Positions 5,884 to 28,043 of a stretch of 64,000 nt of DNA are shown piece after piece; the stretch's first letter is position 1; each line of letters opens with the position of its first letter. Source of the DNA: Nanobdellota archaeon. GTDB taxonomy: Archaea; Nanobdellota; Nanobdellia; Pacearchaeales; GW2011-AR1. The DNA is taken from positions 5,973 through 69,972 of the forward strand of contig JBBSYY010000012.1 of NCBI GenBank assembly GCA_038044985.1, written 5' to 3'. The notes under the pieces were generated by a model. The model did not search any database. It was given only the letters and a program-made list of their open reading frames with translations, and was not told where the DNA came from. Position numbers and translations under genes: made by a program.

Positions 5884-8634
5884 TCACAACAACCAATCTA
5901 AATACTTAGTTTCGTCTGTATCAAGATATTCTTGCTTTATTTGTTCTTTTCCGGTATAATACACTTCCCAAATCTTAACGGGTCCTTGAACTCCTTGAAA
6001 ATAAACAAAATCAGGCAAATTTGTTCCTCTACTTCTTATATTGTCTATAATTAATGTTGGTTCTGCATGAACTAATTTAAAATTCTTAAATTTATTAAAA
6101 GGATCGTTCATTAAATAAACCTGGCTTAAAAATCCTCTCATTAATCTTGGAGATAAATAAAACGCAGTTCCCATTTGATTTAACTGGACTGTTCCTTCGC
6201 TTGTTTGGTCTAATCTCGGAAAAATAAAAGCAGCCGCCTCTATTCCATTTTTGAAGTCCGTTAATTCTTTATTATTTAAATTGTATGAGTATCTTAAATT
6301 AACATTAAACTGCTGATTTTGGTAAACTACTATGATATAAGGTTGATAATATCTACTATTTTGAGTAGGCAATACTATCGCTCCAACAGCAGCCGAATTA
6401 GCTGGAAGAAGAATGTCTTTTCCATTTTGATTAATTACTAAATCTTCATCTAACCCAACTCCTCCAGCATAAACTAAAAGAGTCTGATTTTTGGTTTCTT
6501 GAGTTTTGGTTTCATCTAATAAAAATGTTCCGATAAAAGAATATCTATCAAAATCTTTATTACTACCAATACTTGAAAAAGCTCCGTATTTTCCTATGTC
6601 TGTAGAGTCTATTAAAAGGTAAGTTGTATCATGGTTGTAAAGAAATTCCAAAGCATCATTTTCATTATCTCCAGTTAAAACATGCCTTCCCATTAAATAA
6701 TTCCAATAAACAATTGCATTACCTCCATCAACAGTAGTTGCTCTATTACCTATACTTTGAACCCAATAACCATAATCCCACCAGTGGGAGAAAACCGCGT
6801 TTTCCGGTGTATTCTTTCTCGCCCAATCCATTGCTTTTTGCCATTGAATGTTATAACTACTTGGCACGAATCCAAAAGACTGGGCTTTAACACTTTGATA
6901 AAAAACAGAAAAACTATAAACACTTGAAATTAAAATTATTATTAATAAAATTCCAATCAAAATTTTAGACAATTTTCTGTATTTGAAAAATTTGTCACTC
7001 AAATCAACAATTAGAAATCCGACAAAAATTGGAGCAATTGGACCCAAAACCATAATTAATCTTATAGCTCCTCTTGCAGTAAAAAGAGTTAAAATAAACA
7101 AAGAAAACAATAACAAATATTCAAATCTTATTTTCTCGAAACTATCATCTTTTAGTTTATAATATCTATTATAATAATAAATAAAAGCTCCCAGAAATAA
7201 TAAAATAGAGATATAATAAAAGAACTTGCTGATAAAATTCTCTCCATTAAACAAACTTCCAGTAGAATACCTAGAGAATATTATTCCTAGTAAAAAGAAA
7301 ATATAAAAAGAAGTTAAAATCAAAGTATCCTTATTTTTTAATCTTAATAACATTTTTCTAAATAAGACAACTGAACCAATAAAAAACATCCAAAAAATTA
7401 GAGGTATGTTTTTAACAAAAGGCCCAAAATTCTGACTCCATTCTCGAAAATCAGGTTGTTTATTCTCGGCAACAGTTATATTCCATCTTCCAATAACTGG
7501 TTTAAAAATTGTTTGATGAACTGCCTTCGCTTTACTTGTAATAAAACTAGGCCCTAAAAAGATTAAGCTTATTACTATTAATATAATAATAGTAGCAATT
7601 AAAGAAAGGATGGTTTTTGGAATTTTTGTTTCTCTATTGATAAATTTATTAAATTTAGTATTCCAAATTAAGTAATGTACAATTATAATAAGTAAAACTA
7701 AAAAAGCTAAACCAGAAGATAAAGAAGTGAACATTTCATTAAAATCATATCTCTTACCAGAAAAATACATAAGTATAAGAAAACTAAAAAAAATCCAGAA
7801 AAAATAAGCTAAAAATTCTTTTTTACTAACTTTGTTTAAAATAAATGCTATTAGTACTGCTAGTCCTAATGGAATAAATATATAGATAACTCCGCCCCAA
7901 ACCAATCCTGTCATGCCAGTAAAAACTCCAGCCAAACTTCCCAATATAATTGAATTAATTAATTGTTCAGCTTTCCAAGATTTTAAAAATAAATAAAAAC
8001 TTAAAAATATAAAAAAGAATGCGGCGCTTTCTTTTTCAGGAATTCCTGCGACAGTTCTTGATAAAAAAACAGGAATAACAATCATAAAAAAAGTAGATAT
8101 TATTGCAATAATATTGGCTTTTAGAATACTTTTTTCTGACTTTCTTACAAAAATTTCTCTTACAAATAAAAAAAAACTTATTATGGTTAAACCAAACATT
8201 ATAACTGGAAAAACCACTCCTGCAAATTCAATTCCTTTATCTACTCCAATAAACTTGAGAATTTTATAAGTCCAGGCAATCATATAAGCAAGTAATGGGA
8301 CTTCAATTGAATTATCAAAACCTAAAGGAACATTTCTCATATAGTCTCTTTCAGGCAGACTGCCTTGTTCAACAATAGTTTTTGCATTTCTAAAAAACAA
8401 CCAGGGATCTAAATCAGGACCTAATGTCCAAGTATTAGTAGTGATATCCCATAATCCAGGCCTTCCTCCATGATCTGCCATAGGTAAACTTCTTATATAC
8501 GCCCCTAAAATTACGGCGATAACTAAAACAACTAAAACCCACCACCTGCCTTTAAAAAAGTTTAAGAACTTTTGTTTTCTTAAAACAATAAAATCTTCAT
8601 TTATTGTTTCATCATCAACATTTGAAACTTCCAT
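5884..8634 (-). CDS. aglB: Archaeal oligosaccharyltransferase AglB (STT3 family)
   Basis: 916 aa with a multi-TM N-terminal half. Contains the catalytic WWDYGYW motif (HWWDYGYWVQS) followed by a soluble C-terminal domain. Confidence 0.92.
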   Translation of the reverse strand: MEVSNVDDETINEDFIVLRKQKFLNFFKGRWWVLVVLVIAVILGAYIRSLPMADHGGRPGLWDITTNTWTLGPDLDPWLFFRNAKTIVEQGSLPERDYMRNVPLGFDNSIEVPLLAYMIAWTYKILKFIGVDKGIEFAGVVFPVIMFGLTIISFFLFVREIFVRKSEKSILKANIIAIISTFFMIVIPVFLSRTVAGIPEKESAAFFFIFLSFYLFLKSWKAEQLINSIILGSLAGVFTGMTGLVWGGVIYIFIPLGLAVLIAFILNKVSKKEFLAYFFWIFFSFLILMYFSGKRYDFNEMFTSLSSGLAFLVLLIIIVHYLIWNTKFNKFINRETKIPKTILSLIATIIILIVISLIFLGPSFITSKAKAVHQTIFKPVIGRWNITVAENKQPDFREWSQNFGPFVKNIPLIFWMFFIGSVVLFRKMLLRLKNKDTLILTSFYIFFLLGIIFSRYSTGSLFNGENFISKFFYYISILLFLGAFIYYYNRYYKLKDDSFEKIRFEYLLLFSLFILTLFTARGAIRLIMVLGPIAPIFVGFLIVDLSDKFFKYRKLSKILIGILLIIILISSVYSFSVFYQSVKAQSFGFVPSSYNIQWQKAMDWARKNTPENAVFSHWWDYGYWVQSIGNRATTVDGGNAIVYWNYLMGRHVLTGDNENDALEFLYNHDTTYLLIDSTDIGKYGAFSSIGSNKDFDRYSFIGTFLLDETKTQETKNQTLLVYAGGVGLDEDLVINQNGKDILLPANSAAVGAIVLPTQNSRYYQPYIIVVYQNQQFNVNLRYSYNLNNKELTDFKNGIEAAAFIFPRLDQTSEGTVQLNQMGTAFYLSPRLMRGFLSQVYLMNDPFNKFKNFKLVHAEPTLIIDNIRSRGTNLPDFVYFQGVQGPVKIWEVYYTGKEQIKQEYLDTDETKYLDWLL

Positions 8635-11105: not shown

Positions 11106-11921
11106 ATGGACAAAAAGAAGCTTTTGCAATTCAATCAAATCTGCAAAGACATCAAAAATGTTAAAATTCAGGGAGCAAGAAATATAGCAAAAGCAGGACT
11201 TAAAGCTTACTCTTTAATTCCGACAAAAACTTCAAAGAAAAAACTTCTTTTTTTAAGACCAACAGAGCCAATGTTAGAAAAAGCTTTAGTTCTTGCAGAT
11301 AAAATTCCTCATAATAAAATTATAAATCACTTCAATCAGGCTCAAGAAATTATTAATAAACATATTTTTAAACTAATAAAAAATAATGATATAATATTTA
11401 CCCACTGTCATTCAACAAATGTTGTTAATGCTCTAGTTTATTCAAAAAAACATGGAAAAAAATTTGGGGTTTATAATACAGAAACAAGGCCTTTATTACA
11501 AGGAAGAAAAACTGCTAAAGAATTAAGAAAAGCTAAAATAAAAGTATCAATGTTTGTTGATTCTGCGCTAGGAATTGCTCTTGAAGGAAAACAAGGGATT
11601 AAAAAGACCACCAAAGTATTATTGGGGGCAGATGCTTTACTAAAAAAAGGAATTATTAATAAAATAGGTAGTAATGTTATAGCACAAATTGCAAAAAACA
11701 ATAGAATACCTGTTTATATTATTGCAGATTCTTGGAAGTACACAAATAAAAATGTTCCTTTAGAAAACAGAACTTTAAATGAAATATGGAATAAAGCTCC
11801 TAAATTAATTAAAATTCAAAATCCTGCTTTTGATTTTGTCCATAAAAGATATATAAAAAAAATAATAACAGAGCTAGGAGCTTTAAGTTATGATAAGTTT
11901 TTGAGGGGGGTGAAAACTTAA
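11106..11921 (+). CDS. eIF-2B alpha/beta/delta-family protein (ribose-1,5-bisphosphate isomerase-like)
   Basis: ETRPLLQGR, LLGADAL and IPVYIIADSWK motifs match the IF-2B family fold. Confidence 0.6.
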   Translation: MDKKKLLQFNQICKDIKNVKIQGARNIAKAGLKAYSLIPTKTSKKKLLFLRPTEPMLEKALVLADKIPHNKIINHFNQAQEIINKHIFKLIKNNDIIFTHCHSTNVVNALVYSKKHGKKFGVYNTETRPLLQGRKTAKELRKAKIKVSMFVDSALGIALEGKQGIKKTTKVLLGADALLKKGIINKIGSNVIAQIAKNNRIPVYIIADSWKYTNKNVPLENRTLNEIWNKAPKLIKIQNPAFDFVHKRYIKKIITELGALSYDKFLRGVKT

Positions 11922-12084
11922 ACTCTTTTTAAGTTAAAATAATATATTATAGATTACTGCTAGAAATAGTTATTTTGTTCATAGTTTTTCTGAATCAGAA
12001 CTTTTAATAGTTAATTTATAATATTAGTTATTTTTTATTTATAACGATCCCTAGTCTTATTTAGTAAAATCTTTAGAAATCAAT

Positions 12085-12480
12085 CTACTTTTTCTTACTC
12101 TGCTCCTTCTCAATCTCCACAATAAGATTATTAATTTCTTCCTGTAAAACCTCTAATCTTTTCATGATTTCCTGTTTAATCTCTGTTAATTTTTCAGTTT
12201 GATTATTGGCAATTTCTTTAGTTTCAGAAATAGTTTTCTTAACAAAATTTCCTTTGCCAACATCAACAATTAAATTATTATCTTTAATTTCAACTGGCAA
12301 GTAAACTCTTTTGCCCAAATTTGCAAGAATATCCTTGTTTTTATTGTTTTCAATTTCATTTAAACTTGATATTAATTCTCCAAATTCCCTAATATTTTCC
12401 TCAATTAACTGCAGCTGTTGATTTAACTGATTGACTTCCTGTTCCATTAACTGAATTTTAATTAGTTGTTCTTGATTCAT
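12085..12480 (-). CDS. pfdA: Prefoldin alpha subunit
   Basis: Coiled-coil N- and C-termini flank a double beta-hairpin core (ILANLGKRVYLPVEI...VDVGKGNFVKK). Confidence 0.7.
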   Translation of the reverse strand: MNQEQLIKIQLMEQEVNQLNQQLQLIEENIREFGELISSLNEIENNKNKDILANLGKRVYLPVEIKDNNLIVDVGKGNFVKKTISETKEIANNQTEKLTEIKQEIMKRLEVLQEEINNLIVEIEKEQSKKK

Positions 12481-12520
12481 TGAGGAAGATAAATAAATAT
12501 GCTTTTAAATCTTTCTTACC

Positions 12521-12901
12521 CTACTCCGGTTTTACATTGCAATAATTAATATATCCTATACTTATTATAAGAACTCCAATAGAGTTTATTAAAATGTCTT
12601 TAAATGAAGAATATCTTCCTGGAACAAAATACTGATGTATCTCATCAGAAATTCCATAGATTATTGCCAAGACTACTCCCAAAATTAATAAACTCTTTGA
12701 TTTCTTTCCTTTAGTTATAGAAATTAATAAAAATAGAGCTAGATATGAGAATACCGTAAAATGATAAATATAACTAAGATAACCGGTTCCTCCGCCCGCA
12801 GGAAAAGTTAAAGAGGATATATAAAAAATTAGAACAGCTATAATTACTGTTACTAGCCATGAAATACCCCTATTTTTTTCAAACCATCTAACTATGTACA
12901 T
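12521..12901 (-). CDS. VanZ-like membrane protein
   Basis: SDEIHQYFVPGR...DILINSIGV motif; 4 TM segments. Confidence 0.7.
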   Translation of the reverse strand: MYIVRWFEKNRGISWLVTVIIAVLIFYISSLTFPAGGGTGYLSYIYHFTVFSYLALFLLISITKGKKSKSLLILGVVLAIIYGISDEIHQYFVPGRYSSFKDILINSIGVLIISIGYINYCNVKPE

Positions 12902-12982
12902 GTTTTATTATAATAAAATGAAATTTAAAGATTGTTGTAGTTAAAAATATCGTTAAGAATTGCTACTAGTCAATAATCTAAA

Positions 12983-13387
12983 TTACTGCAACCCAAAAAC
13001 CTTGCTTAAAAAAATACTAAAAATTATGCTTGTTATTATATACCACCATATCCAACTTCCAGATAAACTCGTTGTTGAATAAATATCCAAAAGCCATTTA
13101 AAAAGAATTAGTAAAGGAATTAACGTAATAATCATTGGCTTGAAAGATTCTTTCATCTGTTCAGGAAAATCCTCTAGCATTTTTTTATTTAGTTCTAACA
13201 TTTTCTTAGGATTATTTTTAAAATTTTTCATTTCTTCACGAAGTTTTTTCTGTCTTTCTCTAATTTCCCGCATTTTATCTCTGTCAGTCATAAAATATCT
13301 TACTATTGTAACTAATAAAGTAGCAATAAAAGAAATAATAATAATTGAAGTTTTCGGATTAGTTTGAATTAGTTCTGTTAGTGGCAT
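12983..13387 (-). CDS. DUF106 / EMC3-YidC-like membrane insertase homologue
   Basis: TM1, then a charged coiled coil (REIRERQKKLREEMK), then two further TM segments. It sits in the conserved archaeal position downstream of secY. Confidence 0.6.
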   Translation of the reverse strand: MPLTELIQTNPKTSIIIISFIATLLVTIVRYFMTDRDKMREIRERQKKLREEMKNFKNNPKKMLELNKKMLEDFPEQMKESFKPMIITLIPLLILFKWLLDIYSTTSLSGSWIWWYIITSIIFSIFLSKVFGLQ

Positions 13388-13655
13388 TTTTATGTTTTTA
13401 GCTTTTACTCCTTTTTTTATTTATCTTTTCTTACTTAATGTTATTTATTCTAAGGATTTATTAATAATTAGTTTAATTACCTCTTTATTATGTTTATTAT
13501 ATTATTTATAATCAAAACTGGTTTTTAAAACTTTATAATCACCATAAAACTAATAAATACAAAACTTCTAAATTATTACGATAATCTATAAAGGATATTA
13601 TTTATTTAGAAAAGCCCAAAGCAAAATAATAAAGGCGCACATTAGAATTAGTGGA

Positions 13656-13910
13656 ATGCTTTGCGCTTTTGGCGAGAGCTACATCATTCAAGTAAAAAAA
13701 GATGACGCCTTAGAAGAACAAATTAAAACAATACTTCATGAACTAGCTCATCTTAGTTTAGAAGGCAAAAATCTTGATGAAATAGATTCTGAATTAAACA
13801 AAAGTCTTATTCTTGGCAGATTATCCTTAGAACAAAAAAAGTTAATAGTAAAAATTGAAGAGGATATTGAAAAAAGTCAGGAAGTTTTTATGAAAGAAAT
13901 CTGCCTTTAG
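13656..13910 (+). CDS. Hypothetical 84-aa protein with an HELAH (HExxH) motif
   Basis: ORF only. ILHELAHLSL is a minimal metallopeptidase-like motif. The in-frame upstream region closes with a stop at 13569-13571, so there is no longer alternative. Confidence 0.3.
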   Translation: MLCAFGESYIIQVKKDDALEEQIKTILHELAHLSLEGKNLDEIDSELNKSLILGRLSLEQKKLIVKIEEDIEKSQEVFMKEICL

Positions 13911-13971: not shown

Positions 13972-15336
13972 CTAAACCCCCATCATTTTTTTCATGGCAG
14001 GATTCATGTCAAGAGCATGTTGTTGTGCTATGTTCTGGTAGAACTGAAAGGTAATCATAATTCCTAATAATAAAGCTGTTCCTCCAACCAAAGCTCCTAA
14101 AACATCTGCAAGAGCAGCAAGCAATCCAATAGCAAGTCCTCCCATAATAGTTAAAGGTGTAACATATCTTGATAAAATTGATTCTAAAATTCTTTGGTCT
14201 TTTCTAAACCCGGGAATTTGTAGTCCTGATTTTAAAATATTATTTGCTTGTGCAGAAGCGTCCATTCCAGCAGTTTTAACCCAAAATACTGAGAATAATG
14301 CCGCAAAAAACATATAGAAAGCAATATGCCCAAAAGTCTGCCATAATAGATTAATTTCCCAACTTCCAGTAATTATTCTTCCAACTATATCTGTTGAACT
14401 TATCCAAAATAAAAAACCGCTTACAGGCTGTCCATTAACAACACTTCCCAAAAAAGTCGGTCTTCCAAGCCAATTTTGTAGCAAACCACCAAATAATTGA
14501 ATGTTAGCAATTAAAGCACCTGTTAAGATTATAGGAATTACCGATGCATAAAAAAACTGCAGGGGCCACTTAAGACTATATCCTCTTAATCTGTCATAAC
14601 TTAAAGGAATCTCAATTTTCAAACTTTGAGCCCAGACAACAACTAAAAACAAAATAATAGTTACAGCAATTGCAGAAAAAGCTAGCATTGCTCCTTGACT
14701 ATCTGCATTCATTAAACTAACTATCAAAGCTATAACTTTTCCAGAAGGTTGGAAATTACCTTCAGGACCTAAAAAACCAAAACTAGCTGCAATTAACTGC
14801 CAACCAACTCCTGCTGCGATAAATAAGCTAACTCCTGATCCAAATCCCCATTTTTGACAGACTTCATCCATAAACAAAATAGCTAGTCCTCCTAAAACTA
14901 ACTGAAAAATAACTATATAAGTAAAACCAGGAGCAGCCCTAATTCCTCCCATTGAAACATAAATAATAGATTCAAATAATATAAAGAAAAAAACTAGTAA
15001 TTTCTGTAATCCTTGAAAAAATCTTTTTCCTTCTACACTAGAAAGATCAATATTAAGAATCTGGCTTCCAACTAATAATTGCAAAATAATACTAGCCATA
15101 ACAATAGGTCCAATTCCAAGCGAGATAATTGATCCAAAACTTGCTCCAAGAATTACTGCAAAAAATTTAAACTGTTCTAAAAATCCCGGGTCTGCTCCAT
15201 AAAGAAAAATATTAGACATAAGAAAAAATGCGGCTAAAATAATAAGAGTCCATTTTAGCTTAGTATTAAAACTTAGTTTCTTTTCAATTGGCCCTTTTAC
15301 TTCAGGAAGATTTTTTAAAATATTTTTAAATTCCAT
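13972..15336 (-). CDS. secY: Preprotein translocase subunit SecY
   Basis: 10-TM SecY/Sec61alpha pattern at the canonical position after rpl15. Confidence 0.92.
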   Translation of the reverse strand: MEFKNILKNLPEVKGPIEKKLSFNTKLKWTLIILAAFFLMSNIFLYGADPGFLEQFKFFAVILGASFGSIISLGIGPIVMASIILQLLVGSQILNIDLSSVEGKRFFQGLQKLLVFFFILFESIIYVSMGGIRAAPGFTYIVIFQLVLGGLAILFMDEVCQKWGFGSGVSLFIAAGVGWQLIAASFGFLGPEGNFQPSGKVIALIVSLMNADSQGAMLAFSAIAVTIILFLVVVWAQSLKIEIPLSYDRLRGYSLKWPLQFFYASVIPIILTGALIANIQLFGGLLQNWLGRPTFLGSVVNGQPVSGFLFWISSTDIVGRIITGSWEINLLWQTFGHIAFYMFFAALFSVFWVKTAGMDASAQANNILKSGLQIPGFRKDQRILESILSRYVTPLTIMGGLAIGLLAALADVLGALVGGTALLLGIMITFQFYQNIAQQHALDMNPAMKKMMGV

Positions 15337-16201: not shown

Positions 16202-16669
16202 TCACAACATCCTCTCAATAAGTTTATTTATATCTTTTCCGTTATTTCCCAATACCCCTTTAGGATAAACCAGTTTACTTTTTATTCCTTTTCTAGGAGG
16301 ATGAAGCCTAAAAAAAGGCTTTAATTCAAAATCAGAAAGTTTTTTTCCTTTGATTAGATTATCAGCAACCTCTTCGACATTAATTTTTATTTTATTTTTA
16401 TCGCCTTCGACAGATTTTGCCCTTTCTTTAATTAATTTAACTAGAATATTCTTATCAATCTCGCCATAAGCGATATAAAACTTTACCTTTTTCAACATTC
16501 CTTCATTATTTTTATTTCTAGTAATTAAGATACAAGCATATTTTCTTCTTAATCTCAATCTATCTAAAGTTCCAGCAATATCTTTTTTTACATCAACCAT
16601 TCCAGAAATTCTAATTACTGCTAATAACTTATTCTCTGAAAGTAATTTTTCTTTTTTTGTATCTGCCAT
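16202..16669 (-). CDS. rpl30: 50S ribosomal protein uL30
   Basis: LAVIRISGMVDVKKDIAGTLDRLRLRRK motif typical of archaeal L30/L7e. Confidence 0.9.
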   Translation of the reverse strand: MADTKKEKLLSENKLLAVIRISGMVDVKKDIAGTLDRLRLRRKYACILITRNKNNEGMLKKVKFYIAYGEIDKNILVKLIKERAKSVEGDKNKIKINVEEVADNLIKGKKLSDFELKPFFRLHPPRKGIKSKLVYPKGVLGNNGKDINKLIERML

Positions 16670-16886
16670 TTTTTTAGTAACGTAAGCCCCTATTTCTTGC
16701 TTGCTGTTGCTATCTTCTAGTTCTTTATTAATTATTTTTTGTTCTCAATTAGATTTTATTTTTTTTATTAATACCTGCTAACTCAACTTGAGAGCTATAG
16801 CTACTCATTACTCTATTATTTTCATTAAGTTTAATATTACTAATATCATCATTCATTTTTTCTATTTTTATTTTTTAGATATGGGA

Positions 16887-17186
16887 TTAAGCTAATTCAA
16901 TGCTTTCATCAGAAAATCCAAGTTTTACCAGAACTTTTTTAACGTTCACTGAATGTTTTCCTTGGAGTTCAATAGCATTTCTTTTAACTGTCCCGCCACA
17001 AGCTAGTTTGTGTTTAAGCTCTTTTGCCAGAGACTTCAAATCAACTCCCTGAAAACCTAAGATGACTGTTATAATTTTCCCAAATTTCTTGATTTCTGTT
17101 TTTATCTGTATTCGCTGTTCTGTTTTTGCAATTTCTTGGCAAACACAAGCTTGCAAAGGCAATCCACATTTAGGACATATACTCAT
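16887..17186 (-). CDS. Translation initiation factor aSUI1 (eIF1 homologue)
   Basis: N-terminal CPKCGLP..CVC zinc knuckle plus a SUI1 domain (KLACGGTVKRNAIELQG). Confidence 0.85.
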   Translation of the reverse strand: MSICPKCGLPLQACVCQEIAKTEQRIQIKTEIKKFGKIITVILGFQGVDLKSLAKELKHKLACGGTVKRNAIELQGKHSVNVKKVLVKLGFSDESIELA

Positions 17187-17414
17187 TTGTTTATTTTTTT
17201 GTTTTTATCCTCAATAGATTTATTTAATAGTTTTAACTTATTTAAAGATTTTTTTGATTTTAAATTTTTGTTGTGTTTCGTTTTGCGCTTTTTATTGAGC
17301 AAAATGAAATGCTCAAAAATCTTTCGATTTTGTTGTGCTTCATTTTACAATTCTAGCTTGCTTAAGGCTTTCAAAACCTTCATAAAATTTATTTTTGTTT
17401 AGTTTTATTTATGT

Positions 17415-17649
17415 CAAGATTCTAGAAAACCACGCACTTTAGTGCGTGGGAATCTTGAGCACCTCAAGAATTCTGACAATTGAATTCTTGATGGTCATCA
17501 GGAATTTTATTCCTGAGACAAGAAAATTTCTTACAAAGGAAATTTTCTGTACAGAAAATTCCAAACAACAAAAGGAATTTTCTTGCATCCAAAAGTCCTA
17601 AACAAACCTCGGCTTTTAAGCCGAGGTAAAACTCAAGGACTTTTTGATT
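17415..17649. other. Array of at least 7 consecutive perfect stem-loops inside the r-protein operon (between rpl29 and SUI1)
   Basis: Stems verified by hand. They are 17415-22/17450-57 (enclosing ccacgcac-ttta-gtgcgtgg), 17453-59/17463-69, 17465-73/17482-90, 17498-505/17509-16, 17521-30/17539-48, 17553-62/17574-83 and 17591-99/17636-44 (enclosing cctcggctt-tt-aagccgagg). Confidence 0.85.
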
Positions 17650-17822
17650 TTATTAAATGTTAGCAATCTTGCAATTGTTTTTTTTAATTCTCTAATTTTT
17701 GTTTTTCCACCTTTAGTCAACTTAACTCTTTCTCTGATTAATTCATTTTTTAATTCTTTAATTTTTTCTTTTATTTCATTTACAGCCATTTTTGAAATAT
17801 CTTTTGATTTTAATATTGCCAT
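17616..17822 (-). CDS. rpl29: 50S ribosomal protein uL29
   Basis: 68 aa with the helical L29 pattern (KELKNELIRERVKLTKGG). The stop codon (17616-17618) lies in the loop of the GC-rich hairpin. Confidence 0.85.
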   Translation of the reverse strand: MAILKSKDISKMAVNEIKEKIKELKNELIRERVKLTKGGKTKIRELKKTIARLLTFNKIKKSLSFTSA

Positions 17823-18006
17823 CTTGTTAAGTTTTGGTTTACTTAAAGATTCAGAAAATTTTTCATGTTAAAATTTTCTGCGCTCAAAAATCTTTTGATT
17901 TTTGTTGTTTTTAAAACCATCTATAAATTTTAGTTTTAGGTAATCAAAGATTTTTAATCTTTTAGTCTTTATCACCATATTTAATAATTTTTATTTAATA
18001 AATTTA

Positions 18007-18786
18007 TCATTCTTTTGATTTTATATCAATAATTTCTTGAGGAGCTTCTTTAATATCTTTTTCCATCGGCTTTTTTATATCCTTATTTTTCACTTTTTCT
18101 TTTTTCTCTTCAGTTTCTTTGATTTTTTCTTCAACTTTTTTTTCGGGTTTTTCTTTTTTTTCCTGAATGCTTTCTTTGATTTTTTCTTTTACCAATTCAT
18201 TAATCTCAATTTTATCATAAATTCTAGCCCATGGGGGCATAATAGCAACTTTCACTCCAATAACTCCGCTTTTTGTTAGTGCTGTTGATTGCGCTCTATC
18301 AACTTCTTTTCTTGAATCTCCAGCTTTCTTTAAATAACCTTCTGAAAATCTCCATGATTTAGCTCTATCACTAGGCAGTTTTCCGCTTAATCTTATTTCA
18401 CAACCTAAAACTCCGGCAGCCATTATTTCTTGCAATTTTTTATAAGCAATTACTTTAAACTTCAAATTACCAGTTCTTTCTAAAGCAAGTGCGATCTCAT
18501 CGGCAACTGTTTGTGCGTCAAACAAAGGATCTTTAATTTCTTTTATTTCAATGTGTGGGTTTTCTAGTTTAAATCTTTTTTTTAAAATTTCTGTTAAATC
18601 TTCAATTTTCCCTCCCCCCCTACCTATAACTAAACCAGGTTTACTAGTAGAAATAATTATTTTCTCTCCGACTGGCGTATACTCAATGTTCAATTTACTA
18701 ATTTTTCCTCTTCCTAGATCCCTTTTAATATATTCTTTAATTCCAAACTCTTCTTTCTTCAGTTTTATAAATTTTTGTTCTTCCAT
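18007..18786 (-). CDS. rps3: 30S ribosomal protein uS3 with a Lys/Glu-rich C-terminal tail
   Basis: KH domain (GLVIGRGGGKIEDL) plus S3 C-terminal domain, then about 60 aa of KE-rich tail. It is in a non-canonical position, after rps5. Confidence 0.9.
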   Translation of the reverse strand: MEEQKFIKLKKEEFGIKEYIKRDLGRGKISKLNIEYTPVGEKIIISTSKPGLVIGRGGGKIEDLTEILKKRFKLENPHIEIKEIKDPLFDAQTVADEIALALERTGNLKFKVIAYKKLQEIMAAGVLGCEIRLSGKLPSDRAKSWRFSEGYLKKAGDSRKEVDRAQSTALTKSGVIGVKVAIMPPWARIYDKIEINELVKEKIKESIQEKKEKPEKKVEEKIKETEEKKEKVKNKDIKKPMEKDIKEAPQEIIDIKSKE

Positions 18787-18788
18787 TT

Positions 18789-19214
18789 TTAATTAGGTTC
18801 CTCCCACATTCCATTTAATTGCAGCATTTTTAACAATTTTGGATATCTTGAGTCAGAAGATTTATATATATTATAACGAACAACTTTCCCAAAATCATTT
18901 AAAAATCCTAACGAGATAACACGATCTTCAAAAATTAGTTTTTCTTTTAAAATTCTATAAGCTATTATTTTATCATCAGCTATTTTAGTCAGAAATTCTT
19001 TAACACCATAGATTTCAGATACTTTATTCTGTAAGATAACCTCATAAAATTCTTTTTTATTTTCTTTAATAATTCCAGAATAAACCATTTGCTTACTTAT
19101 TGTTTCTAAAGTTACTAAACTTTTATGTTCAACTATTACTTTTTTTCCAATTAAATTTTCTAGTTCTTCATGAATTCTAGGTTTTTCATATATAATTGCT
19201 TTTTGCATTTTCAT
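18789..19214 (-). CDS. Operon-embedded orphan ORF O9 (141 aa)
   Basis: Starts at the base immediately after the rps5 stop and ends 2 nt before the rps3 start. I recognise no family. Confidence 0.65.
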   Translation of the reverse strand: MKMQKAIIYEKPRIHEELENLIGKKVIVEHKSLVTLETISKQMVYSGIIKENKKEFYEVILQNKVSEIYGVKEFLTKIADDKIIAYRILKEKLIFEDRVISLGFLNDFGKVVRYNIYKSSDSRYPKLLKMLQLNGMWEEPN

Positions 19215-19940
19215 TTACATCTCCATAGTCTTTTTTAAAGCATTAATACAAGCCTTTGCTAAATTTATAGTTGTTCTTTTCTGCCCATCTGTATAACTAT
19301 AAACATCTTTTATTCCAGATATTCTTAAAATTTTCTTTAGCTCATCTCCAATGACTAATCCTGTACCTTGCGGGGCTGGAATTAATTTAACCTTACAACT
19401 CCCACATTTTCCCTCAACAACAAATGGAACTGTATGCGATTCTCCACAATTACAATCAAAACTACCACAAGCCCTTTTAATTTTAATAAGATTAAGTTTA
19501 GCTTTTCTTAATGCTTTTGCGTTTGCTGGCAAAGTTTCTTTTGCTTTTCCATATCCAATACCAATATAACCATCGCTTCCTACAACAAGTGCACATGAGA
19601 AGGTTGGAACATTTCCTTCAGCAGTTTTTCTTTGAGTTTGTCTCCAAGCTCTTCTTTTTCCACCGCCAAATTTTCCTTTTGCCTGTCCGATATTAAGGAT
19701 TTCTGACTTTAGCCCCAATAATGAATCAACAATTTCTGGCTCTAATATTCTATATTTCAACACTTCATCAATTTCTTTAATTTTTCCTTCTTTCACAAGT
19801 TTGCCAAGTTTTGTTTTTGGATTCCACTCTTCTAATTTTTTAATTTTTTGTTCTATCGCTCTATCTTCTCTGATTTTTTTAAAGTCTCTAGTTTTCCAAG
19901 CTTCATTCATTTTTTTATTTAATCCAATTTGTTTTTTCAT
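19215..19940 (-). CDS. rps5: 30S ribosomal protein uS5
   Basis: S5 dsRBD and C-terminal domain motifs (VVGSDGYIGIGYGKAKE; APQGTGLV). Confidence 0.9.
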   Translation of the reverse strand: MKKQIGLNKKMNEAWKTRDFKKIREDRAIEQKIKKLEEWNPKTKLGKLVKEGKIKEIDEVLKYRILEPEIVDSLLGLKSEILNIGQAKGKFGGGKRRAWRQTQRKTAEGNVPTFSCALVVGSDGYIGIGYGKAKETLPANAKALRKAKLNLIKIKRACGSFDCNCGESHTVPFVVEGKCGSCKVKLIPAPQGTGLVIGDELKKILRISGIKDVYSYTDGQKRTTINLAKACINALKKTMEM

Positions 19941-25744: not shown

Positions 25745-26119
25745 TTAAAAAGATTCCAACATTTTTACAGATTTAACAAGAAATTCTTTATATCTTTCTT
25801 TAGCTAAATCAAATAAAGATTGATAATAATCAGGAATTCCATTTTTTAAAAAAGAGGAGTTAAAATAAATAGAAGCAATTCTATCCAAACTTAATATGCC
25901 GTCAGCAAGGCTTTTTCCAACACGTTCAATGTCTCCTTGTTGAGCAAAAGCAGCTGATTCTATTGATGTAAAATTTATGAGACATAATTCTTCTAAATAA
26001 CTTCCCAGTCTTTTACTTATAAATTTCTGTTTAACTATATTGTTTATTCTGTTAGAATAATCTCTAAGATTATTTAATTCTCTTGTCATTAAATTATTAA
26101 TTTCATTATTCATTTTCAT
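25745..26119 (-). CDS. Operon-embedded orphan ORF O4 (124 aa, helical)
   Basis: 4-nt overlap with O3 and 1-nt gap before rpl24. A GAGGAAAG Shine-Dalgarno-like motif lies upstream of the ATG. Confidence 0.65.
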   Translation of the reverse strand: MKMNNEINNLMTRELNNLRDYSNRINNIVKQKFISKRLGSYLEELCLINFTSIESAAFAQQGDIERVGKSLADGILSLDRIASIYFNSSFLKNGIPDYYQSLFDLAKERYKEFLVKSVKMLESF

Positions 26120-26834: not shown

Positions 26835-27179
26835 TCATTCTCCTTTTTCCTTAGTTTTACTTTCTTTACCAACCTTTCTGACAACAATAAAATGAATTAT
26901 CTTGCTAATAGGCCTGCATTCTTTAATTTCAATATAATCTCCAATACTGATTTCTTTTGACATGCAATCAGGAAGTCTTGCATGAAGTTTTGTTTTCCTT
27001 TTAGCATATCTTTCATATTTTCTAACAAAAATTGTCCTTTCAAATTCAATTACAACCCTTTTTGGAAATTTCTTTCTTACAGTTCCATAAAAACTTCTAC
27101 CTCTAAGACTTATACTGCCATGTTTTGGACATGCAAAATCATTGCATTCCTTTTCCGTTATGTTTTTTTGTTCTGCCAT
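26835..27179 (-). CDS. rps17: 30S ribosomal protein uS17
   Basis: CPKHGSISLRGR...VVIEFER...IGDYIEIKECRPISK OB-fold S17 pattern. Confidence 0.9.
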   Translation of the reverse strand: MAEQKNITEKECNDFACPKHGSISLRGRSFYGTVRKKFPKRVVIEFERTIFVRKYERYAKRKTKLHARLPDCMSKEISIGDYIEIKECRPISKIIHFIVVRKVGKESKTKEKGE

Positions 27180-27186
27180 TTTAATT

Positions 27187-27441
27187 CTATATTCCTTTTA
27201 AATAATTTGGTAACCATTTATCAACTAATTCTTGATAGAGTTTTATTTTAACCTCAATATCATTATCATTTCTTACTCTAACAAAATCTTTTAATTCTAA
27301 TAGTCCTGCTCCAATATTGATCACTGCATCTTTTTTCCCAAGACTATAACTATTATCCCAAAAAAAATTGAAATCTTCTAAATATTTGTTTAACCCAATC
27401 AATAATGCATTTTTCCTTATTTCATAATTTTCAAATTTCAT
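27187..27441 (-). CDS. Operon-embedded orphan ORF O2 (84 aa)
   Basis: 8-nt gap after rpl22 and 7-nt gap before rps17. It occupies the slot where rps3-rpl29 normally sit. Confidence 0.6.
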   Translation of the reverse strand: MKFENYEIRKNALLIGLNKYLEDFNFFWDNSYSLGKKDAVINIGAGLLELKDFVRVRNDNDIEVKIKLYQELVDKWLPNYLKGI

Positions 27442-27449
27442 TTTAATTT

Positions 27450-28043
27450 TTATCTCAGATTAGGAACTAATTTAATTAAAACATGACTTCTCTTAAATCT
27501 CCCTTGCCCAAATCTTTTCTGTGGTTTAGAAGCAATATTAGCCATGCAAAAAATTTTAAATTTTTCTAATTCTAGCTCATTATAAATTGCATTTGCTCTT
27601 AAACTTTTTAATAATTTTAAAAATTCATTAACAGCATTTATAGGATATCTCCCTCTTCCAGAAGCGATACTAATTCCTTTTTTATGCGGTATTTCTCCTT
27701 TCATTGGAATGGCAATTTCTATTTTTTTGACTTTTTCAAGATTTCTAATAGACTGATCAATTTCTTTATTTCTGATAAAATTACAAACAGCAACAGCCTG
27801 TTTTGTAGAAATCCTCAAATCCTCTCCTTTAACAACAGCTTCTGTTTTTTTTATTCTTTTAATTTCTGCTTTAGGTTCTCTTTTTTCTTTAGTTTTTTCT
27901 TTTTTAATATCTAACTTATCGCCTTTATTATATTGAACCTCTGTTGCTTGCTTGGCGTTACTATAACTACTATTGCTAATTTTTTCTTCTTTAAAACTTT
28001 CTTTTATATTTCCTTTAATTTTATTATCTAATTTTTCATCCAT
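27450..28043 (-). CDS. rpl22: 50S ribosomal protein uL22 with an about 60-aa N-terminal extension
   Basis: L22 core (ISTKQAVAVCNFIR...GRGRYP...). The start lies 1 nt after the rps19 stop. Confidence 0.88.
   Translation of the reverse strand: MDEKLDNKIKGNIKESFKEEKISNSSYSNAKQATEVQYNKGDKLDIKKEKTKEKREPKAEIKRIKKTEAVVKGEDLRISTKQAVAVCNFIRNKEIDQSIRNLEKVKKIEIAIPMKGEIPHKKGISIASGRGRYPINAVNEFLKLLKSLRANAIYNELELEKFKIFCMANIASKPQKRFGQGRFKRSHVLIKLVPNLR

Follow-up and report, generated by a model that had tools for sequence, protein, structure and literature searches.

Few known gene orders are as conserved as that of the S10/spc-type cluster of ribosomal protein (r-protein) genes. Its canonical archaeal form is L3-L4-L23-L2-S19-L22-S3-L29-SUI1-Rpp29-S17-L14-...-S5-L30-L15-SecY, and the r-protein locus containing Rpp29 is the best conserved among the archaeal RNase P protein loci (PMC4919917). 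Departures have been described: the r-protein/RNase P protein loci of the Thermoproteales are fragmented, and partial sets of RNase P proteins occur in the Thermoproteaceae, which are without Rpp21, and in the nanoarchaeote Nst1, which is without detectable Pop5 (PMC4919917). Within the DPANN archaea, proteins of the ribonucleoprotein type of RNase P are found throughout (PMC6380272). The subject here is a 64,000-nt stretch of DNA (the window) from a Nanobdellota archaeon of the order Pacearchaeales (assembly GCA_038044985.1, contig JBBSYY010000012.1, positions 5,973–69,972; contig C12 in our numbering). It shares with the canonical supercluster the gene set, the strand and the order of r-protein genes outside one three-gene block, and differs in that S3-L29-SUI1 lies between S5 and L30, in the absence of Rpp29, and in the unassigned open reading frames (ORFs) and the repeat element that are interleaved with the conserved genes. 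The canonical order is kept exactly in basal members of the same genus and in sister families, with Rpp29 missing in most. The window order is a true, derived and inherited rearrangement of the conserved archaeal cluster, confined to one genus-level group of Pacearchaeota (DPANN). As in the Thermoproteales, this is a lineage-specific breakdown of a conserved translation-gene neighbourhood, but rather than being fragmented the cluster remains intact and co-directional, with one block transposed inside it, in a single genus-level clade. The transposition of S3-L29-SUI1 is not described in the literature searched on Pacearchaeota gene order and RNase P.

The assembly holding the window is a metagenome-assembled genome (MAG) of 725 kb in 64 contigs, 88% complete; the G+C content of the window is 27%. 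According to the ORF table, the r-protein supercluster occupies the minus strand from L3 (32083) to SecY (13972). The order read from the ORFs in a first-pass annotation is confirmed by Pfam: L22-O2-S17 ... S5-O9-S3-L29-SUI1-L30-L15-SecY, where O2 and O9 are orphan ORFs. Pfam matches on this strand cover L22, S17, L14, L24, S4e, L5, S5, S3, L29, L30, L15 and SecY, and the remaining members of the cluster were assigned from tblastn matches between their translations and collinear genes in the clusters of relatives. The relocated genes are followed by spacers of 184 nt (S3-L29), 429 nt (L29-SUI1) and 217 nt (SUI1-L30), the lengths annotated earlier. The accompanying claim that every other junction measures 145 nt or less holds from L3 to S3, where all are 144 nt or shorter, with an exception at L30-L15, which comes to 325 nt when O10, a doubtful ORF, is left out of the count.

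The positions of S3, L22, S17, L14, S5, L29/SUI1, L30 and L15 were mapped in a first sample of 40 related genomes. All but one of the 24 that belong to the same genus have L22-S17-L14 ... S5-S3-(L29-SUI1)-L30-L15; the canonical arrangement, L22-S3 ... S5-L30, is found in the remaining one (G005) and in all 16 genomes that represent eight further families of the order. When the whole genus was surveyed (n = 49), S5 was followed directly by S3 in 46 genomes, two were canonical (G005 and G049) and one (G041) gave no call. A GenBank comparison comprised 80 loci centred on S5. Here S5-S3 occurs in 20 genus-level loci, 18 of which continue as S5-S3-L29-SUI1(-L30) before the locus ends, and S5 is adjacent to L30 in L065, in L068, whose contig is that of G049, and in 37 Pace-, Woese- and Nanoarchaeota loci that are more distant (L069–L110 less the truncated L107). 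Every genome has a single copy of S3. The proposal that a conserved order had been rearranged is thus borne out, and the order is not the norm for the phylum, the other Pacearchaeales families and the distant loci being canonical. A mis-join at 16.7–19.3 kb had also been raised, in which the S5/S3 and SUI1/L30 junctions would be products of MAG assembly, perhaps by way of the repeat element. The window does come from a 64-contig MAG, and a multicopy repeat does sit inside the block, but that repeat lies between L29 and SUI1, at neither breakpoint, and the 46 independently assembled genomes of the genus agree with one another, many having an S5-S3 gap of 5–13 nt and no repeat element. The same order in so many independent assemblies excludes a mis-join, and an artefact of assembly is effectively refuted, with a negligible chance of being the explanation.

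The distribution of gene orders is best fitted by a single transposition within the genus-level clade that followed the split from three basal lineages of canonical order and was passed on to every later member. A tree of three proteins (S3, S5 and L14; 549 columns) was too weak to place G005, with an approximately unbiased (AU) test p = 0.11 for the constraint to a single relocated clade, and was replaced by a tree of nine (S14, S8, L6, L32e, L19e, L18, S5, L30 and L15; 1311 columns). In the latter, the genus node is supported at 100/100 and the canonical L065 is the first branch, while the canonical pair G005 and G049 is placed near the base, beside relocated groups, at weakly supported nodes. 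Constraining the relocated genomes to one clade gave a log-likelihood 0.23 above that of the free search (AU p = 0.52). It could be argued instead that the genus began with the relocated order, from which G005, G049 and L065 reverted to the canonical one, or that the block moved repeatedly. The free maximum likelihood (ML) trees, which weakly nest G005 (with or without G049) among relocated genomes, point in that direction, as does the share of bootstrap trees that need one change only (0% for three proteins, 12% for nine). However, an exact return to the canonical order, or a series of identical moves, would be unparsimonious, the outgroups are all canonical, L065 is basal in the well-supported genus, and the tree with a single relocated clade is equal to or better than the free one in both data sets. 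Reversal or multiple moves are accordingly rated very unlikely. As the node that decides the matter is weak, a single origin is the best fit and not a proof. With a single probable origin, the transposition offers a rare-genomic-change marker for the systematics of this Pacearchaeota subclade. The coordinates of the features are collected in Table 1.

Table 1. Features of the relocated block, its old and new neighbours and the interleaved elements (positions in the window).
Feature	Position	Strand	Evidence and remarks
uL22	27450-28043	-	PF00237, E = 2.5e-8; upstream neighbour of the vacated slot
O2	27187-27441	-	84-aa orphan ORF in the L22-S17 slot vacated by S3-L29-SUI1; no Pfam match
uS17	26835-27179	-	PF00366, E = 1.2e-16; now after L22/O2 instead of SUI1/Rpp29
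L14	26423-26887	-	Pfam
uS5	19215-19940	-	PF00333 + PF03719; upstream neighbour of the block's new position
O9	18789-19214	-	141-aa singleton orphan at the S5/S3 junction; no Pfam match
uS3	18007-18786	-	PF07650 + PF00189; first gene of the relocated block
S3-L29 spacer	17823-18006	-	184 nt
uL29	17616-17822	-	PF00831
Repeat element	17409-17648	-	~240 nt, dispersed, hairpin-rich, MITE-like; further copies on contigs C36, C59, C34 (x3), C42, C37, C13, C11, C45 (x2), C58
Distal L29-SUI1 spacer	17187-17408	-	AT-rich
aSUI1/eIF1	16887-17186	-	PF01253, E = 1.5e-18, 67.4 bits vs cut-off 25.5; last gene of the relocated block
SUI1-L30 spacer	16670-16886	-	217 nt; downstream junction of the relocated block
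uL30	16202-16669	-	PF00327; downstream neighbour; directly after S5 in canonical genomes
L15	15424-15876	-	Pfam
SecY	13972-15336	-	Pfam

In effect, S3-L29-SUI1 (~1.3 kb) and the adjacent S17...S5 segment (~8 kb) have traded positions while keeping their strand and internal order, the block having moved ~8 kb downstream from the uL22/uS17 slot to the uS5/uL30 slot. Many descendants have tight junctions at the new sites. One conceivable route is that S3...S5 was duplicated in tandem and that the first copy of S3-L29-SUI1 and the second copy of S17...S5 were then lost; another would be excision and reinsertion of the small block. The junctions are sealed, and no duplicate or remnant that would favour either route is left (one S3 per genome). 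Originally the block was probably tightly integrated, with an S5-S3 gap of ~5 nt and genes that overlapped or nearly abutted, and its retention within the co-directional cluster means that co-expression was probably preserved. The rearrangement is genuine but a modest evolutionary change in a well-known cluster, in which a conserved order proved changeable without the cluster being broken.

The long spacers at the relocated genes had been interpreted as scars of the move that are still visible. This does not hold up in the relatives, where the junctions are sealed. The S5-S3 gap is 5–13 nt in nine relocated loci, the L29-SUI1 gap 12–50 nt in 15 of 16, and the SUI1-L30 gap 53–192 nt in 16 relocated relatives; in G012, L29 overlaps S3, SUI1 overlaps L29, and L30 begins 3 nt past SUI1. 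In the window genome itself, most of the 429-nt spacer was brought in by a multicopy repeat that inserted recently. The long gaps are later additions to originally compact junctions, not scars. If they were instead decayed leftovers of the rearrangement, such as traces of genes once duplicated, their position flanking exactly the relocated genes would be explained, as would the length of the SUI1-L30 spacer in most relocated relatives when set against the 3–40 nt between S5 and L30 in most canonical genomes. Such remnants are unlikely, since translated similarity to Rpp29 is found in no spacer, the L29-SUI1 gap is short in all but one of the relatives, a mobile repeat that the window genome alone has in this form makes up over half of the 429-nt spacer, and G012 has no spacers at all. 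A six-frame search of the SUI1-L30 spacer with a hidden Markov model (HMM) for a remnant of Rpp29 reached only ~2 bits, and searches of the spacers for Rfam families gave only sub-threshold chance matches.

The ~240-nt repeat element is represented by 12 near-full-length copies, of 79–98% identity, on nine other contigs, along with fragments. The alignment of the copies starts at ATCAAAAAG, within the L29 ORF, and the element begins ATCAAAAAGTCC. The last ten codons of L29 (IKKSLSFTSA) and the stop codon come from the repeat; relatives have an L29 C-terminus of the form ...TFNRLNK(Q/S)xExK instead. The L29 copy is the only one entered by a real ORF. There are two subfamilies, between which the first stem covaries (ACCTCGGC/GCCGAGGT vs ACCATGCC/GGGCATGG). 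T-runs follow both terminal hairpins, forming hairpin plus T-run modules at 17606–17627 and 17430–17449, and a terminator scan returned terminator-like matches in the element. At full length the element is restricted to the window genome; G057, G019, G050 and G023 have multiple copies of related 50–180-nt modules, frequently located at contig ends. In the closest relative, L046 (CAYIJD010000008.1), the contig ends at 4822, 24 nt past the S3 stop. The repeat-bearing spacers of the window lie at exactly this point, suggesting that the assembly of L046 was likewise interrupted by repeats. The element resembles the hairpin-rich dispersed repeats of archaea that are likened to miniature inverted-repeat transposable elements (MITEs) in being short, non-coding, multicopy (at least 12), mostly intergenic and highly structured. 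In contrast to these, one copy in the window genome supplies an essential r-protein gene with its C-terminus and stop codon, and a partner transposase was not identified; on visual inspection, the 12 aligned copies and their flanks show no clear terminal inverted repeats or target-site duplications.

The later additions in the window genome are O9 at the S5/S3 junction, O2 in the vacated L22/S17 slot, AT-rich spacers before L29 and SUI1, and the multicopy hairpin repeat, whose insertion into the 3' end of L29 rewrote the C-terminus of the protein and put two hairpin plus T-run modules after the gene. What had looked like scars are secondary invasions (hairpin repeat, orphan ORFs) of an operon that is fully compact in sister genomes. 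In the S3-L29 spacer, a TATA-like motif (TTTATAGATGG, at ~17925) is accompanied by a hairpin (CAGAAAATTTT/AAAATTTTCTG), and the distal L29-SUI1 spacer has a TATA-like AAATTTTATGAAGG motif (at ~17375) along with a ~26-nt repeat of a motif found in the S3-L29 spacer. From their sequence, these AT-rich spacers may act as internal promoters, and the TATA-like motifs may, with the hairpin plus T-run modules, have divided the block into separate units. The two spacers were also compared as possible duplicates of one another, which was rejected: they are no more alike overall than shuffles (70 vs 64 ± 7) and have only the ~26-nt motif in common. One other locus of the genome, on contig C6, is homologous to the ~95 nt at the 3' end of the S3-L29 spacer (local alignment 124 vs 56 ± 7 for shuffles). 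This module extends over window positions 17823–17920 and C6:~5890–5990 (minus strand), the latter site apparently non-coding. It is made up of a TATA-like box, AAAAACAACAAAAATC, GATTTTTGAGC, an AGAAAAT...ATTTTCT hairpin and TCTTTAAG, and includes a conserved run. Possible identities for the module are a small-RNA gene and a promoter/leader cassette.

The first-pass annotation had found no Rpp29 in the cluster, which was confirmed, and the gene is also undetected genome-wide: the assembly has no match to PF01868 anywhere, and there is no credible match in 24 genus genomes. Across the order, PF01868 is present in the sampled genomes of families f2, f5 and f8 and absent from those of f3, f4, f6, f7 and f9. 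An order-specific HMM (A4), built from six Rpp29 sequences of the order, matches only the six source genomes. Against the ORFs of the window genome it gave nothing (best E = 1.3), nor did it match six-frame translations of the spacers, and an Rpp29 pseudogene was not found. Its top matches in the window genome were rejected, one being alpha-NAC-type-like by sequence and the others unrelated ORFs. Although the absence of Rpp29 had been reported together with the move, it is not tied to it. SUI1 is followed directly by S17, without Rpp29, in the canonical G005 and G049 of the genus, in G027 (f4) and in G037 (f9), and an empty SUI1-S17 slot in genomes of canonical order means that the departure of Rpp29 from the cluster preceded the relocation and was independent of it. 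The gap is the older of the two traits and is common to most families of the order.

The other parts of RNase P are present. The whole-genome search for the RNA that had been proposed as a check located it at C24:1223–1626 (RF00373, full model, 83.2 bits vs a gathering score of 84, E = 8.5e-23). The gene is flanked on the same strand by the 3' end of 23S rRNA (C24:1–954) and a tRNA (1695–1766). Among the core proteins Pop5, Rpp30, Rpp21 and Rpp29, the first three were found, in divergent form, and Rpp29 was not. The Rpp21 candidate (C55:157–453) has a zinc ribbon and RNase P component 4 as its top PDB match (E = 6.7e-4), and the Rpp30 candidate (C52:9569–10048) is short, with RNase P component 3 as its top PDB match (E = 5.6e-6). 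Pop5 (C23:11618–11896, minus strand; MRPLKPSHRERKRYLLIKG...) was found by way of a genus homologue (E = 6e-35) and had been missed by a six-frame genome search with PF01900 at E <= 0.01, which makes Pfam-based calls of absence unreliable in this lineage.

A true loss of Rpp29 appears moderately probable from these searches. That families f1, f3, f4, f6, f7 and f9, of the nine sampled, truly lost it while keeping an RNA-based RNase P with Pop5, Rpp30 and Rpp21 is slightly favoured. A tentative alternative is that an Rpp29 too divergent to be recognised by its sequence is encoded elsewhere, possibly by one of the small unassigned ORFs. Pop5 is clearly present though invisible to the Pfam genome search, Rpp21 and Rpp30 score under the Pfam cut-offs, and Rpp21 usually forms a heterodimer with Rpp29 (PMC4919917), all of which would fit a hidden subunit. 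Yet weak small-ORF matches in the 24 genus genomes, which number 15 for Rpp21, 22 for Rpp30 and 5 for Pop5, are nil for Rpp29, as they are in the window genome, the order-specific profile is also empty, the conserved SUI1-S17 slot is vacant in canonical relatives, and neither O9 nor O2 is conserved in the genus. If the loss is true, this would be a natural archaeal RNase P without Rpp29, a reduced holoenzyme that keeps the obligate partner Rpp21. As with the Thermoproteaceae and Nst1 (PMC4919917), the RNA is kept and one canonical protein subunit is undetectable; here, by contrast, it is Rpp29 that goes undetected and its usual partner Rpp21 that is retained. A set of RNase P proteins lacking Rpp29 but keeping Rpp21 is not described in the RNase P literature searched.

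Taken as a whole, the history of a single, fixed transposition within the cluster, with later additions and an earlier disappearance of Rpp29, is considered highly probable. Several observations weigh against it. The free nine-protein ML tree requires two changes, with one change in only the small share of bootstrap trees given above, and support is weak at the node dividing G005 and G049 from the relocated genomes. All genomes are MAGs. A scan for sigma-70 promoters and terminators (bacterial-type) was not above shuffles overall, with 6 terminator-like sites vs 5.5 expected. Finally, since Pop5 is present and yet was missed by the Pfam genome search, the non-detection of Rpp29 is weaker evidence of its loss.

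A faint resemblance of O9 to the N-terminal strands of Rpp29, suggested in the first-pass annotation, was not substantiated. O9 is a singleton with no Pfam match, and its probability against the order-level Rpp29 profile is 0.1% (hhalign; 0.4% for O2). The orphans have no paralogues in the genome at phmmer E < 0.1, and among 5.8 billion protein clusters O9 matched only itself and a 99% variant. As homologues for an alignment were lacking, an AlphaFold2 model was made from the single sequence; it is all-helical with a mean pLDDT of 50, too poor for use. Neither O9 nor O2 is conserved in the genus, the S5-S3 and L22-S17 slots being empty in G012, G009 and many loci: L22 and S17 are directly adjacent in G009, and by match coordinates the gaps are ~23 nt or less in G012, G014 and G015. 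In L046, whose S5 is 85% identical, the S5-S3 slot holds an 87-aa ORF that is unmatched to O9. O9 is thus an insertion at the S5/S3 junction that followed the relocation. As candidates for a divergent Rpp29, O9 and O2 were rejected, since Pfam, profile-profile comparison, absent homologues and non-conservation all speak against them.

Other ORFs interleaved with the cluster have counterparts in relatives. O4 (window 25745–26119), between L14 and L24, has a homologue in another genome of the genus, at L056:1103–1462 (36% identity, E = 1.9e-20), that sits, unlike in the window, between L6 and L32e. The closest relative has O7 and O8 at the same positions as the window (44% identity). Judged from such comparisons, turnover and changes of slot appear to affect the orphans interleaved with the cluster. 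Different breaks of the cluster are seen in G036 and L072, which are other Pacearchaeales or Woesearchaeota. On contig C1 of G036, S5 is at 461110–461790 and S3, Rpp29, S17 and L14 are at 11546–13892, which places S5 ~450 kb from S3-L14 in the numbering of this 486-kb contig, or ~36 kb across its ends if the contig is circular. In L072 the cluster reads S17-L14-L24-S4e-L18-S5, without L5...L19e in between.

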